A stretch of DNA of 64,000 nucleotides, from contig CAVPSB010000014.1 of assembly GCA_963708025.1 (NCBI GenBank), positions 1-64,000 of the forward strand. Reading direction: 5' to 3'. Of this stretch, positions 17,096 through 23,181 are shown one piece after another. The DNA is from an uncultured Candidatus Rokubacteria bacterium. GTDB taxonomy: Bacteria; Methylomirabilota; Methylomirabilia; Rokubacteriales; DASRDR01. The notes under the pieces are model-generated. The model was given only the letters and a program-made list of their open reading frames with translations. It was not told the origin of the DNA and searched no databases. The stretch's first letter is position 1, and every line of letters begins with the position of its first letter. The translations under genes were made by a program, and so were the position numbers.

Positions 17096-18899
17096 ATGTA
17101 TAGCGTCCACTTCGGTTTTCGAGAGCAGCCGTTTGCCCTCACGTCCAATCCAGTCGTCTTCTACACGAACCCCAGCTACCCGGACGCCTGTGCCAACGTG
17201 CTCTCCGCCATCCACGCACGCGAAGGATGGGTCGTGCTGATCGGCGAGCCCGGAACGGGCAAGACCACTGTGCTCCGCCGGGTGCTGAGCGCCTTAGAGG
17301 CGCCAGTTCCCTTCGTGTTCTCTTTCAACGTGATCCTAACCTTCGACGAGATGGTGGCCTTGCTCGGCCAGCGACTGAACTGGGCGAATCCCGGCGGCAC
17401 CCAATTCGAGCGCCTCCAGGCGCTGAAGGCCTCTTTGCGGGCGCAGTTCGAGGCGGGGACTCTAATAGTTGTAGCGATCGACGACGCGCACGGGCTGCCC
17501 CAGGAGGTGTTCGAGAATCTGCACCGGCTGTCGAGCGACGAACCGGGCGGCATCAACCTCCTGCAGATCGTGGTGGCTGGACTCTCCGAGCTGGAAGCCA
17601 AGGTCGCTGCACTCCGATCGCGGTCAGACGGGCCTGGCACCCTAGTGCGGTGTCGGCTCGAGCGGCTCACAGCTCGGGAGGTGGGTCCGTATATCGACTA
17701 CCGGCTGCGGCGCGTGGGCTGCGAGCGGACCGATCTCTTTCCGCCGGTGGCGATCGAGCGTATCGCGGCTTATACCGAGGGGATTCCGCGGCTCATCAAC
17801 CAGATGTGTGACAACGCGTTGAGGATCGCGTGTGACGCGGGTCGGGAGACGGTCTCGGTGGCGATCATCGAGGAGGCCGCTCATTACCTCCAGCTCGCCG
17901 AGCCCGACAGGCTCCTCACAGAGGAGAGCGCCCCGACCTCAAGGAGGGAGACAGGCAGGATCTGGGGCGGGCTCCGCAGCCTGGAGGGCCGTCTCCTTCG
18001 GTTCTGGCCTCGGCGCCGGTTCTGGCTTCAGCGCCTGGGCTGGTCTACGCTCGGCATTGTGTTGGCATCGTTCCCCTTGTTCTTCCTCACGCGGAGTCTT
18101 CACCTGCCTCCCTCGACTTATTCCTCTCCACCCGTGCCCGTGGAGCGCTCGGGAGGTAGTAGTCCAGCCACCAGCGAGCCCGTCGCGCACGTCGCGCCCG
18201 CCGTTGAGGAGGTCGCGCGAGAAGGTCCGGAAGTGACTCGGGAGGCTCTGCCGGCAGAGAGCCGAGAGCACCCGGGATCTGCGGTATCGGTCAGAGACAC
18301 GGCCGGCCAGGCCATCGGCCGAGACGGCGGCGGGATGGCGTCGTCAGAGAGGGGCGGTGCCCGCGCCGGTGGCGAGCACAGGCGTCGCGTCGCGTGAGCA
18401 CGCCCTTCTGAGGAAGGCAGAGGATGGAGACATTCGGGGCGTTGACGTCCTGTTGACCGCCGGGGTGCCACCGGACGCGAGAGATCGGCGGGGCTTGACC
18501 CCGTTGATGCTGGCGGTCATCCATAACCACCCCACCATCGTGAAGGCCTTGATCGAGCGTGGCGCCGACGTCAACGCACGCGACAATGGCGGCGCCACCG
18601 CGTTGATGCTGGCGGTCATCAACGACCGCCCCGCCATCGTGCGGGCGCTGTTCGCCCACGGCGCCGACATCAATGCGCGCAGCAAGGCCGGCTGGGCCGC
18701 GCTGACATATGCCGCCTGGAAGGGAAATACCGACCTCGTGCGAATGCTGCTCGACAGCGGAGCCGACGTGACCTTCACCGACAAGCGGGGCTGGACCGCC
18801 CTTCAATATGCCGCCTGGAAGATTACCCGCTCTGGTCAAGCGGAAGACAGCTACCCCGAGATCCTCGCGCTCCTAGAGGAGGCTGGGAGGAAGAGATAA
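17096..18899 (+). CDS. ExeA/GspA-like AAA ATPase with TM helix, probably fused to C-terminal ankyrin repeats (frameshift near 18350)
   Basis: HFGFREQPF, GEPGTGKTT, IDDAH, GIPRLINQMCDNAL; overlapping ORF 18357-18899 has GxTPLMLA-type ankyrin repeats. Confidence 0.8.
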
Positions 18900-19922
18900 C
18901 AGTGACGGGGCGCGGCGGGGGTGACCCCTTATCCGGACGCGGCCTCCGTGGAAGGGCTTCGGAAGCCTACACCCTTATTCGCCTCTTTTCACCAGCGCTT
19001 CGAGCCACGAGGTGGCCCGTAGTGTCCGAATATTCGGCCCGGCCCGTAGTGTCCGAAAACTCATCCCGTGCTCAGGGCTCAGGCCGCGCGGTGGTAGTAC
19101 CGCAACAGCCCGCCCAGCCGGTCCCGACAACGGACGTGGGTCCCGCCCGGGGCCGGGGCTGCCGGGGTGATCAACTCGTTGCCGAGCCCCTGATGGTTCC
19201 GCTCCCCGTGGTAGTGCGCCACGAACTCGTCGAAGGCGCGGAGCAGCCGACGCTCCCCGAACAGGATCAGGCGGTCGAGACACTCCGCGCGGATCGAGCG
19301 CACGAAGCGTTCCGCGTAGGCGTTGGCATTCGGCGCCTGGACTGGCGTCAGCACGATCCGCACGCCCGCGCCTTGGACGATGCGGCGGAAGCCGTCCGTC
19401 CACTTGCTGTCGCGATCGCAGATGAGGACGCGGTGGCCCGCCAGGAAGCCATCGACCGCGTCGGTCAGTCGCCGCGCCGCCTGCGCCATGAACCACGCAT
19501 CCGGGGTCGGGGTCGAGCCCGCCACGTGGACCCGTCGGCTCCGGAGATCGATCACGAAGAGCGTGTAGTACGTGATCAGCCCTCGAGGGGTCCAGACCTC
19601 GCTGGTGAAGAAGTCGGCCCCCGCGATCGCGCCCCAGTGGGCCCGCAGGAAGGTCCGCCAGGACGACGGCCGGTCCGGCGCGGGCGGGATCCCGTGGTCT
19701 TTCAGGACTCTTGGCGACCGTACTCCGGGCCACGTCGTGACCCAGGTTCTTCAGCGCGCCCTGGATTCGCGTGTAGCCCCACGCCGGATTCTCCGTGGCC
19801 ATCCGCACAATGAGCGACGAGATCTCCTTCATGATCCCGGGACGGCCTGGCCGGTTCGGCGTGACCGTCCACTTCCGGGGCGATCAGCTGCCGGTGCCAT
19901 CGCAGACTTTCTCTGGTCCATG

Positions 19923-21152
19923 TCAAGCGATTTTTTTCGCGCGCTGCCGCAGCTGCTGTCGCGTCATCGTCGCCAGGTGGTACTGCTCGTCATACGGCAC
20001 CTGGCGCTCCCACAGGACGAAGATGATCTTCACCCACTTCGCGCCCAACGCCCGGAGGGCCTCGCGATGCGAATGGCCCCGCGCCCGCTGCGCGTCGTAG
20101 TACGCTCGCGTCCACTCACTCGAGCGCAGCGAGAGGAAGGCCACCTGGTCGACCACGTACCGCAACATCTTGTCGCAAGCGAAGCGGAAGTGGACGACGT
20201 GCTGCCTGCCGCTCTTCACGGTCACGGGCACGGCGCCGGCGTGCGCCTGCAGATGCTGAAACGACTCCCACCGCCCGGGGGCATCCCCCAGCCGCGCCCA
20301 GAGCGTGGGTGCGGTGACCCCATGCTCACCGATCGGGAGCGTCCGGATCCACTGCGCCGCCGGCATGGCTGCGAAAAAATCCTCGACCGCCTGCCGGTAG
20401 GCCCCGACGGCCGCGACCACCGCCCCCAGCTCGGTCACCAGGGCCTGCATCAGCCGGGCCTTGGCCCGCACGACGTGGGCCGGCACCGGCAGCTGCGGCC
20501 GCTGCAGGACGGCCCAGAGCTCCTGGGTTCGGGCCTCGCTCAGCCGATGGGCGCGCGCCCACCGCTGCCACTGGCGTTCGGTGAGGGCCGCCACGGCCGC
20601 CGGCGTGGGATAGGCCTTCAGGAACTCCCGCGCCAGAGCCGTCGTCAACTCCGCCACCTCCAGGCCGCGGGGATAGTACGCCTTCAGCGTGGCCGTGAGC
20701 TGGTTGACCAGGCGCGTCTGCTGCCGGATCTGCCGCTGGCAGTCCTCCGTGAGGAGCTTGAGCTCTTGGGCCGCCTCCGAGCTCGGCTGCAAGGCCTGGA
20801 GGCGTCCGTGATCCGTGCGGAGGAAGTCGGCCAGCACGCGGGCGTCAAACGGATCACTCTTCGCCCCACCCTGGCGAAACCGATCCCGCGCCCGGTCCAA
20901 TGCCTTGGGGTTCACCGGGTAGACCACGACGCCATGGTCGAGCAGGAAATCCACCACCCGGCCCTCGGGTCGCTCAATCGCCGCCCACAGCTCGATCCCC
21001 TGGGCCTGCCACTCGTGGAGCTCGCGGCCCCACTCGCTGAAGCCCGCCGCCGTGTGCGGCACCGTGCGACTCGTGACCTTCGTGCCGTGCTCCTCCAGGA
21101 CCCAGACCGCATGCTGCTGATCGGCCCAGTCGACTCCCAGGTAGTAGCGCAT
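19923..21152 (-). CDS. IS110-family DEDD recombinase
   Basis: GVDWA, AIE, KSDPFDA (DEDD); C-terminal AHAGAVPVTVKSG with the conserved Ser; intact 409 aa. Confidence 0.95.
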   Translation of the reverse strand: MRYYLGVDWADQQHAVWVLEEHGTKVTSRTVPHTAAGFSEWGRELHEWQAQGIELWAAIERPEGRVVDFLLDHGVVVYPVNPKALDRARDRFRQGGAKSDPFDARVLADFLRTDHGRLQALQPSSEAAQELKLLTEDCQRQIRQQTRLVNQLTATLKAYYPRGLEVAELTTALAREFLKAYPTPAAVAALTERQWQRWARAHRLSEARTQELWAVLQRPQLPVPAHVVRAKARLMQALVTELGAVVAAVGAYRQAVEDFFAAMPAAQWIRTLPIGEHGVTAPTLWARLGDAPGRWESFQHLQAHAGAVPVTVKSGRQHVVHFRFACDKMLRYVVDQVAFLSLRSSEWTRAYYDAQRARGHSHREALRALGAKWVKIIFVLWERQVPYDEQYHLATMTRQQLRQRAKKIA

Positions 21153-21194
21153 TCAGCGTCTCCTCCCGCTCAGTCTCGGTCGTGCCCGGCCCGG

Positions 21195-21443
21195 AGAGGT
21201 GTGAACGGCAAGGTTGGCCTTATACCGGCCCTCCGGGGGGCGACTTTCTCTGGAACCTTCGGCGCCGTTCTCTTGTCGACCGGGACAGTCTGCGATTGAG
21301 CCTCCGGGGGCTCGGAACGTGTTGGTCCTCTGGTCAACAAGTCCCCTCATGCTTGGTGAAGGGCCGCCTCTCTCACCTCTACCAGCCATCTCTTCCTGCC
21401 ATCTCTTCCTAACGGCCGGATAGAGCATCTCTTCGTCGGCCGG
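21195..21443 (-). ncRNA. Predicted IS110 bridge RNA (target-binding and donor-binding loops)
   Basis: Two stem-enclosed internal loops whose strands match the insertion target and the circle junction; ends approximate. Confidence 0.82.
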
Positions 21444-21999
21444 ACAGAGTATAAGGATCGTGTCGGGCGTGACGATGGTCGCGACCTGCCTCAAGACCAG
21501 TCGGCCGAGTCGGCGACCTTTCGCCGCAAAGCGACGGCGCTGATCATCGGTCAGCCGGAGGCGGCGCCCCTTCACCCGCTCCTTCAGGACGCGGTTCTCC
21601 TCCACAAGGTACTCGATGACGTGCTGTTGGTGCGGTTGACCCATCCCGCGAGGGTCACGAGCAGCACGCGCAAGGGCGAGAGGTCGGCAATCATTCGAAG
21701 ATTCTACCGTGGCCGACCACGGGCAGCCCAGAGCTACAGCTCGGCCGAATATTCGGACAGTACGGGAGGACGCGACCTTCGTGAACCCGGGGGTTCTCCA
21801 CGCCGGGACAGGGGAGAACATCGTGTCGCACGCTGAGCTCCGCTTCAAGGTCCGAGGGAAACGGATGAGATCTGCGGGGGAGGAGCCCCCCCGGCGTGTC
21901 GGGGCGGTGACCAGGGAATCACCGTCGTGATAGGCTGCTCCCGGAACCCAGGTTGCACTACGGTTGCACTGTTTGGTGCGGTTTGGAGGAATTTGGAGA

Positions 22000-23181
22000 A
22001 TGCCACCCTCGAAAGTATGGGCACTTGAGCCCGGAATTACGTTCCTCAACCACGGCTCCTTCGGTGCCTGCCCGCGGGCGGTCCTGGAGGCGCAGCGGGG
22101 CCTCGTGGAACGGCTGGAGGGGGAGCCGGTGCGCTTCCTGAGCCGCGAGCTGGAGGGCCTCCTCGACACCGCCCGGGCCGAGCTGGGTGCATTCGTCGGC
22201 GCCCCGCCCGACGACCTCGCCTTCGTGCCCAACGCGACGGCCGGGGTCAACACGGTGCTGCGCTGGCTCACCTTCCGGGCCGGCGAGGAGCTGCTGGTCA
22301 CCGACCACGGCTACAACGCCTGCCGGAACGCCGTGGAGGCCGTCGCCGGCCGGGCGGGCGCCCGGGTCGTCGTCGCCGAGGTGCCGTTTCCGATCGGCTC
22401 GCCCGACGAGGTGGTCGGCGCCGTCCTGGCCCGGGTCACCCCGAAGACGCGGCTCGCGCTCCTCGACCACGTGACGAGCCCGACGGGGCTCGTGTTCCCC
22501 ATCGCGCGGCTGATCGGCGAGCTGGCCGCCCGCGGCGTCGACACGCTGGTCGACGGCGCCCACGCCCCGGGCATGCTGCCGCTCGACCTGCGTGCCCTGG
22601 GCGCCGCCTACTACACCGGGAACGCCCACAAGTGGATCTGCGCGCCGAAGGGCGCCGCGTTCCTCTACGTGCGTCCCGATCGGCAGCCGGGCATCCGGCC
22701 GCTGTCGATCAGCCACGGCGCCAACTCGCCCCGCACCGACCGTTCGCGCTTCCGCCTGGAGTTCGACTGGAACGGGACCGATGACCCCACGGCGTACCTC
22801 TGCGTCGGCGAGGCGATCCGCCACGTCGGCTCGCTCCTGCCGGGTGGCTGGCCCGAGGTGATGGCGCACAACCGGGCACTGGCCTGCGCGGCCCGCCAGG
22901 TCCTCTGCCAGGCGCTCGACCTCGCGCCGCCCAGCCCGGAGTCCATGCTCGGCTCGCTGGCGTCGGTGCCCCTGCCGGACGGCCGCGCCACGCCGTCTCC
23001 CCGGCGTCCGCGGCAGGACCCGCTCCAGGATGCGCTCTTCGAGCGCTTCGCGATCGAGGTCCCGGTCATGATCTGGCCGACCCCGCCCCGGCGGCTGATC
23101 CGCATCTCGGCCCAGCTCTACAACGCGCCGGCCGACTACGAGCGCCTGGCGGGAGCGCTGCGGACGCTGCTGTGCGGCTGA
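22000..23181 (+). CDS. Class V PLP enzyme (isopenicillin N epimerase / EgtE-like)
   Basis: [42 protein letters not shown]. Confidence 0.9.

Follow-up and report, generated by a model that had tools for sequence, protein, structure and literature searches.

Here we describe an insertion sequence which is very probably an intact, bridge-RNA-guided element of the IS110 group, with a strong promoter split between its two ends and rebuilt when they are joined in a circle. It lies in the window, by which we mean the whole analysed stretch of 64,000 nucleotides from an uncultured Candidatus Rokubacteria bacterium, and its features are collected in Table 1. The split-promoter mechanism as such was described earlier for IS621 and ISPpu10 and is a known behaviour of the IS110 family; the circle formation, promoter activity and order of events proposed here are modelled on these two systems.

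Table 1. Positions of the element, its flanking half-sites and its predicted functional parts in the window.
Feature	Position	Strand	Remark
Whole IS110-family element	19904..21455	(-)	1552 nt including the CT of both junctions
Left-junction core dinucleotide CT	21454..21455	(-)	
Right-junction core dinucleotide CT	19904..19905	(-)	
Left target half-site in interrupted IS481-like transposase pseudogene	21456..21465	(-)	
Right target half-site in interrupted transposase pseudogene	19896..19903	(-)	
-10 half, TATACT	21448..21453	(-)	directly after CT 21455-21454
-35 half, TTGACA	19921..19926	(-)	overlaps recombinase TGA stop
A7 tract, about -46 to -40 of the joined promoter	19931..19937	(-)	also encodes Lys-Lys
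TCGTCA in flank	21470..21475	(-)	weak hybrid with element -10 when integrated
Variable leader between -10 and conserved bridge RNA core	21341..21447	(-)	
Bridge RNA target-binding stem-loop, predicted	21273..21340	(-)	guide matches and covariation
Left target guide (LTG)	21323-21314	(-)	8/10 match to flank
Right target guide (RTG)	21297-21290	(-)	7/8 match to flank
Bridge RNA donor-binding stem-loop, predicted	21204..21269	(-)	guide matches and covariation
Left donor guide (LDG)	21252-21242	(-)	11/11; equals last 11 nt before the right end's final T
Right donor guide (RDG)	21226-21218	(-)	7/9; complementary to left-end CTTATAC
Shine-Dalgarno GGAGGA of recombinase gene	21166-21161	(-)	
Recombinase gene, 409 aa, stop included	19923..21152	(-)	Pfam PF01548 and PF02371

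Judged by its sequence, the element is an intact IS110-family insertion sequence, present in one copy in its own genome. Its boundaries are fixed by four lines of evidence: an uninterrupted paralogue of the target, contigs that skip the element, relatives in different flanks, and the matches of the bridge RNA guides. The paralogue (C41, same genome) has exactly 2 nt between the two flanks, and this one 2-nt gap in the empty site, together with the CT at both junctions, is what the 2-nt core of an IS110 element leaves. Metagenome contigs (Logan contigs from four runs) skip exactly 1550-1551 nt, two of them in X2 and one each in X5 and X15; their sides there measure 21-27 nt at 90% likeness. We take these contigs to come from other organisms whose homologue of the target gene is uninterrupted, and not to be excision products. 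Alignments of relatives run to the exact right end, and out of 48 related loci examined, all 33 in which both ends could be recovered end alike, in different flanks. Copies with other ends, named in the preliminary description as the case that would speak against it, are thus absent from the recoverable loci, and its boundaries, CT core, IS110 identity and bridge RNA are upheld by the paralogue, the flanks, the protein domains and the guides. Terminal inverted repeats are absent, as 5 of 30 positions match in the inverted register. The interrupted transposase gene is a decayed, frameshifted pseudogene, and because of the frameshift its 285-aa open reading frame (18975..19832) has no Pfam match.

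The recombinase reading frame is of full length and contains all catalytic residues: D8, E60, D100 and D103 align with D11, E60, D102 and D105 of IS621 (with the chain numbering 2 ahead in this alignment), and S314 in KSG aligns with S241 in ESG; the roles of these residues in IS621 are described in PMC11208158. The N-terminal RuvC-like DEDD domain was recognized by PF01548 with 119.2 bits (cut-off 29), over profile positions 1-155 of 155, and the C-terminal Tnp domain by PF02371 with 32 bits (cut-off 21.3). The best-matching model at full length is the NCBIfam equivalog NF033542 (IS110 family RNA-guided transposase), covered at profile positions 1-342 of 343 with 124.7 bits (E 4.6e-36); this score lies under the equivalog cut-off of 140, and by this stricter measure the protein is a divergent member. 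The most similar copies reside in metagenome-assembled genomes (MAGs) labelled Rokubacteria/Methylomirabilota, and a literature search pairing IS110 with Rokubacteria gave no match.

The predicted bridge RNA is supported by covariation, and its loops match the element's own target as well as its joined ends. In the alignment-based structure 96% of the cells pair, 14 of 34 pairs are compensatory, and none of 500 shuffles reaches the observed values; the window has every invariant column of this alignment. Between the guides and the targets of their own elements 13-17 of 18 positions match (mean 15.2, n=25), versus 8.35 +/- 2.1 for the targets of other elements (n=600), and in relatives where the core is CC (L027, L028) or CA (L035) both loops change along with it. 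The leader is conserved neither in sequence nor in length (about 30 to 190 nt in relatives), and in the window it contains a 13-nt tandem repeat (21410-21385). A fold of the whole left-end RNA was no better than shuffles (z-score -0.58), so that only the alignment-based structure is informative. A search of Rfam gave no match to a bridge RNA family, the sole hit being p27_CRE (E 0.4), which is at chance level and outside the element.

The two halves of the putative promoter lie at the very ends of the element. On the minus strand the TGA inside TTGACA (19925-19923) is the stop codon of the recombinase, and the hexamer is followed by 15 nt (19920-19906) and then by the CT; at the other end, CT is followed at once by TATACT. 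Joining the ends through one CT adds 2 nt to these 15, which gives a spacer of 17 nt, and the junction TTGACA-17 nt-TATACT agrees with the sigma-70 consensus in 11 of 12 positions. The A7 tract upstream of the -35 presumably resembles an UP element. Inside the element, on both strands, there is no other promoter site of at least 9/12. The preliminary description had placed the TTGACA over the recombinase stop correctly to the base, its distances of both hexamers from the cores were exact, and its joined promoter directed toward the bridge RNA and the recombinase is borne out by the sequence. Its remark that junction promoters are established for IS110 agrees with PMC11208160, PMC13626964 and PMC12288879.

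Chance expectation was taken from the genome to which the window belongs (8.17 Mb, 71% G+C, 16.33 million strand positions), which contains 836 copies of TTGACA and 132 of TATACT. Sites of at least 11/12 that retain A2 and T6 of the -10 number 10, 9 and 20 for spacers of 16, 17 and 18 nt (39 in total). With 54 registers that allow a promoter to span a junction, arithmetic from the genome counts gives about 4 such promoters in 100,000 random junctions. Regions upstream of tRNA genes of the same genome reach at least 10/12 in 6 of 50 cases, versus 1 of 3000 random windows, and by this measure host tRNA promoters use the same sigma-70 consensus.

Conservation was followed in 31 distinct insertions (the 33 of 48 loci with both ends plus the window, minus 3 duplicates). 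Their junctions score 12 (three insertions), 11 (19), 10 (seven) and 9 (two). The -35 reads TTGACA in 24, TTGACG in six and TTGATA in one, and was not part of the search rule. The -10 is TATACT in 20 of 31, with A2 and T6 kept in 30 of 31 (L024 has TATATC, without T6), and its first five bases are partly selected for, since the left-end rule demanded core+T[AT]TA[CT]. The stretch of 9 nt at -46..-38 contains five or more A in 25 of the 31 insertions, versus 0.35% of the genome's 9-mers. The conservation is partly due to other causes, because bases 1 to 5 of the -10 double as the right-donor half-site for the donor-binding loop, and the -35 overlaps the stop codon in close relatives. Both hexamers might therefore be kept for recombination or coding, TATAC as the half-site and TTGACA as stop-codon context or as a subterminal contact of the recombinase, with the likeness to a promoter being incidental. 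The complement of the right donor guide indeed spans CTTATAC, the overlap of TTGACA with TGA is shared by the window and its close relatives, and for IS621 the donor shows higher conservation than the target (PMC11208160). Against this stands the fate of the -35 after the coding sequence ends: in distant relatives it is in non-coding DNA, 8-25 nt past the stop codon, and TTGAC[AG] persists there (L020, L023-L027, L029-L031, L040) while its neighbours, including the bases between the -35 and the donor half-site, vary. In L020 the stop has moved and TTGAC[AG] was retained; the A-tract is likewise non-coding in L020, L023-L027 and L040. In addition, the almost invariant T6 is outside the guide pairing, TTGAC[AG] stays 13-15 nt from the core and the spacing at 16-18 nt, three relatives are perfect, and sites of this kind are rare genome-wide. 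We consider an incidental likeness very improbable. The predicted split junction promoter is, on these comparisons, real and conserved in the insertions examined. It is not universal in the IS110 family: an element of this family in the same genome (C13/C15) has no junction site of at least 9/12, with its ends taken from one BLAST alignment only, and ISPpu9 forms circles without such a promoter.

In the integrated state the -35 in the right end and the -10 in the left end are 1.5 kb apart, and the bridge RNA and recombinase would be made only at a low level. The source of this expression may be twofold. The element is co-oriented with the interrupted transposase gene, which makes read-through transcription possible, and TCGTCA of the flank forms with TATACT, at 16-nt spacing, a hybrid of 9/12. 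The earlier claim that the promoter is assembled only on circularisation is consequently slightly overstated. It could even be argued that expression is independent of circularisation, coming from this hybrid or from read-through, and that the junction adds little. In IS621 read-through is enough for excision (PMC13626964), and ISPpu9 uses a native promoter (PMC12288879). The integrated left ends with their own flanks, however, score 6-9 (n=31; right ends with their own flanks likewise 6-9, n=30) and never 10 or more, versus 9-12 for the junctions, and expression of this kind leaves the conserved -35 at the far end without a role; we regard it as improbable, only slightly less so than an incidental likeness. 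With a promoter rebuilt in the circle, rare excision would link the right end through one CT to the left end, giving A-tract/TTGACA-17 nt-TATACT, a burst of RNA and protein could follow, the circle would insert at a site matching the target-binding loop, and insertion would split the promoter again.

The intact parts suggest that the element may be active at present, yet it has one genomic copy. That single copy, the decayed gene serving as its host site, and the only paralogous target in the genome, which has TT in place of the core CT and is unoccupied, would also suit a fossil, immobile in this genome, whose promoter halves and bridge RNA were inherited from a mobile ancestor. The full-length recombinase with its catalytic residues, the invariant bridge RNA columns, the guides which still match the occupied site, both intact promoter halves, and the presence of the family in soil metagenomes with at least 54 distinct flanks argue for an element that may still move; a fossil copy is unlikely, though a reading we take seriously.

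In the metagenome scan the right end of the close family alone was found in at least 120 stretches and its joined ends in none, in assemblies not expected to hold rare circles. Likewise, the right end is followed by TATA at none of the 80 loci read, again in assembled sequence where rare circles are not expected, and no go-back joint (circle junction) is listed for the four runs of Logan contigs, in which rare forms are dropped. Contigs from the RNA library X15 cover parts of the element at 90-95% likeness, with neither start nor strand readable from them.

These results leave the understanding of the mechanism unchanged. They would extend the IS621-type switch, in which a split promoter rebuilt in the circle drives a bridge RNA, to a divergent IS110 lineage that is abundant both in soil metagenomes and in MAGs from phyla without cultivated members. 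By MAG labels, the clade spans several phyla. Natural triplets of bridge RNA, target and donor, including those with CC and CA cores, could serve recombinase engineering as orthologues. Tentatively, and with slightly less than even confidence, we propose that in this clade the right-donor half-site is the -10 hexamer itself and that the -35 and A-tract are placed within or immediately behind the last recombinase codons, so that promoter, donor recognition and coding are superimposed. If this is true, it would account for the constancy of TATA in the right-donor half-site, in contrast to the changing target guides, left-donor half-sites and even core dinucleotides, and any natural reprogramming of the donor-binding loop would destroy the junction promoter.

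Among the closest known parallels is IS621 of E. coli, an IS110-group element for which a bridge RNA and a sigma-70 promoter at the RE-LE junction are described (Durrant et al. 2024, PMC11208160; Hiraizumi et al. 2024, PMC11208158; PMC13626964). Both elements have a DEDD plus Ser recombinase, a CT core, a left-end bridge RNA with target-binding and donor-binding internal loops, and a right-end -35 that falls outside the minimal donor, so placed that the spacer contains the core. They differ in that the protein described here is only distantly alike (PDB 8wt6, E 7.5e-7, two short stretches matched) and has 409 aa versus the 328-residue IS621 chain, that the left end is 303 nt long and has about 100 nt of variable leader ahead of the loops, that the -35 overlaps the stop codon, and that the closest copies are in Rokubacteria/Methylomirabilota MAGs and not in an enterobacterium. 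ISPpu10 of Pseudomonas putida KT2440, also of the IS110 family, combines a weak native promoter with a strong minicircle promoter, Pjunc, a hybrid of a right-end -35 and a left-end -10, which was demonstrated by reporter fusions (PMC12288879); the promoter presented here is predicted, and the two are likened by description. ISPpu9 of Pseudomonas putida, sharing the family, is transcribed from its native promoter according to the same source, in contrast to the window element, which lacks an internal site of at least 9/12 but has the split promoter. Pjunc promoters are further named, in PMC13626964 and PMC12288879, for ISEc11, IS492 (IS1111/IS110) and the IS3, IS21 and IS30 families, where the -35 and -10 also come from opposite ends and are properly spaced in the circle, raising transcription of the transposase. 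In contrast to the element presented here, the IS3, IS21 and IS30 families rely on DDE transposases and have terminal inverted repeats, and the transcript expected from our junction would encode the guide RNA first.

The two halves of a sigma-70-type promoter lie at opposite ends of the IS110-family element, and the positions and 17-nt spacing proposed for them in the preliminary description were all found on the minus strand (table below). Once the ends are joined via a single CT, a spacer of 17 nt separates TTGACA from TATACT.

Features of the IS110-family element and its surroundings (window coordinates)
Feature	Position	Strand	Remark
Left-end core CT	21455-21454	minus	TATACT immediately after
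-10 half TATACT	21453-21448	minus	
Leader tandem repeat	21385-21410	minus	two copies of 13 nt
Bridge RNA stem-loop 1, internal loop (predicted)	21340-21273	minus	in 303-nt left end
Bridge RNA stem-loop 2, internal loop (predicted)	21269-21204	minus	in 303-nt left end
409-aa ORF	19923..21152	minus	
-35 half TTGACA	19926-19921	minus	its TGA is the stop codon of the 409-aa ORF
Right-end core CT	19905-19904	minus	15 nt after TTGACA
Possible outward hybrid promoter	19896-19926	minus	TTGACA-16 nt-TGCGAT
Interrupted IS481-like gene	18975-19903 and 21456-21720	minus	two halves
180-aa ORF	18357-18899	plus	putative ankyrin repeats

In the window's own genome (8.17 Mb, 71% G+C; 16.33 million strand positions), sites matching at least 11 of the 12 bases of the two consensus hexamers, with A at base 2 and T at base 6 of the -10, number 10, 9 and 20 at spacers of 16, 17 and 18 nt, respectively. 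With 54 registers in which a junction-spanning promoter is possible, the chance of a junction of such quality is calculated at about 4 in 100,000. That the host uses a sigma-70-type consensus follows from the enrichment upstream of its tRNAs, where 6 of 50 regions reach at least 10/12 with a -10 that ends 9-20 nt ahead of the tRNA, versus 1 of 3000 random control windows. At the sequence level the split-promoter observation is correct and well supported.

The element, present in one copy in its own genome, had been assigned to IS110, and this identity holds. Its ORF carries both IS110 transposase Pfam domains above cut-offs (PF01548, 119.2 bits; PF02371, 32 bits), and its D8, E60, D100, D103 and S314 align with D11, E60, D102, D105 and S241 of IS621, the catalytic roles of which are described in PMC11208158. 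The only solved structures related to the ORF are IS621 and ISCro4; against the NCBIfam equivalog NF033542 it scores 124.7 bits, below the curated cut-off of 140. The element ends are not inverted repeats of each other, agreeing at 5 of 30 positions.

Four independent lines agree on the claimed boundaries: a paralogue, contig skips, the ends of relatives and bridge RNA guide matches. The flanks together make up an IS481-like transposase gene, decayed and frameshifted, which is co-oriented with the element and interrupted at a conserved 13-residue protein motif. In a second decayed, uninterrupted copy of this gene in the same genome (C41:10256-11149) both flanks stand exactly 2 nt apart, with TT in place of the CT core. 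In soil metagenome contigs (sets X2, X5 and X15) a gap of exactly 1550-1551 nt falls between 19903/4 and 21454/6; its sides are shorter than 30 nt at 90% likeness, and the contigs therefore represent uninterrupted homologous genes of other organisms. Contigs of set X1 bridge both insertion junctions without differences. Of 48 related loci, 33 allowed both ends to be recovered, and when these copies were checked for different ends, all 33 started with core+TATA and finished with the same right-end motif and core, within differing flanks. Beside the target pseudogene lies a 180-aa ORF, in the translation of which putative ankyrin repeats were noticed by eye.

For the promoter itself, 31 distinct insertions were scored, the window included and three duplicate insertions left out. 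Joined ends reached 12/12 in 3 insertions, 11 in 19, 10 in 7 and 9 in 2. Left ends with their own upstream flank scored 6 (9 insertions), 7 (11), 8 (9) or 9 (2), and right ends with their own downstream flank 6-9 (n=30). Among the -35 hexamers TTGACA accounts for 24 insertions, TTGACG for 6 and TTGATA for 1; the -10 reads TATACT in 20, TATGAT in 4, TATAAT in 3, TATCCT in 2, and TATGCT and TATATC in 1 each. The rule for finding left ends demanded core+T[AT]TA[CT], so bases 1-5 of the -10 were partly selected for, the -35 lying outside the rule. In related loci L020, L023-L027, L029-L031 and L040 the -35 lies past the stop codon, in non-coding DNA, and is retained 13-15 nt from the core amid variable adjacent bases. 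Base 6 of the -10 falls outside the stretch paired with the donor guide, yet is T in 30 of the 31, and spacing stays within 16-18 nt despite a variable -35-to-core distance. Retention of the non-coding -35, the T at base 6 and the narrow range of spacing separate the predicted promoter function from other constraints. In 25 of 31 insertions an A-rich tract resembling an UP element precedes the -35 by 3-11 nt; the threshold used, at least 5 A per 9 nt, is reached by only 0.35% of the genome's 9-mers.

The bridge RNA predicted earlier was borne out by covariation and by its guides. When 22 left ends are aligned, 96% of cells are paired, with compensatory changes in 14 of 34 pairs; none of 500 shuffles reached the observed values, and slid controls pair at 30-48%. 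The 5' side of loop 1 equals the left target flank at 8 of 10 positions, and its 3' side is complementary to core and right flank at 7 of 8; loop 2 matches the right end at 11 of 11 and is also complementary to the left-end CTTATAC. This guide strand arrangement is the one published for IS621 (PMC11208160). Scored on 25 distinct target sites, guides agree with the target of their own element at 13-17 of 18 positions (mean 15.2), versus 8.35 +/- 2.1 of 18 for targets of other elements (n=600). Where CC (L027, L028) or CA (L035) replaces the CT core, both loops change correspondingly; L035 also carries an internal stop. The leader that separates the -10 from the conserved bridge RNA contains the tandem repeat AGGAAGAGATGGC. 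Leader length among relatives ranges from roughly 30 to 190 nt (alignment A1, columns 10-200), and L015 has an additional block of some 85 nt.

The right end is present in at least 120 metagenome stretches. Among the matches listed (80 loci), 54 distinct 12-nt sequences occur among 79 downstream flanks, and the left end, sought by a rule that fixed CTTATAC, is also present in 32 of the 80. No joined ends turned up in assembled contigs, which are uninformative for rare circles. The commonest soil-metagenome target of the close family (L051-L130) is ...CTGCTGCGC|CT|CGGCGGCGAG..., found in 17 of 79 downstream flanks among the matches listed. Judging flanks by eye, relatives L008, L037, L011, L038 and L012 appear to sit within transposase-like genes that belong to other insertion sequences; for L008 and L037 the site is some 20 nt upstream of the same ...VLRWH... 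motif. The lineage thus appears to target other mobile elements.

In the integrated state, a scan of 18500-23000 found a single site of at least 9/12, TCGTCA-16 nt-TATACT, composed of flanking DNA and the element's -10, and none internal to the element. The right-end TTGACA faces outward and forms with the flank a 9/12 combination lacking A2, possibly a weak hybrid promoter into the remainder of the interrupted gene.

Six more IS110-family DEDD domains occur in the same genome (C13:384521-384946, C15:73035-73460, three places on C31, and C18:42594-42896). The copies on C13 and C15 are 98.7% alike across 1288 nt; they have subterminal inverted repeats that look IS1111-like by eye, and their junction, with ends defined by BLAST, contains no sigma-70-like site of at least 9/12; the feature is therefore not universal among IS110-family elements. 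A strong hybrid promoter has been published for ISPpu10, with ISPpu9 as the exception (PMC12288879). A split junction promoter driving bridge RNA has already been published for IS621 (PMC11208160, PMC11208158, PMC13626964), and at the sequence level the window element is a further case of it. In IS621 read-through transcription was shown to be enough to allow rare excision, and the junction promoter then raises expression (PMC13626964); by analogy, the same order most likely applies here, and read-through would permit rare excision, upon which the assembled junction promoter would boost expression.
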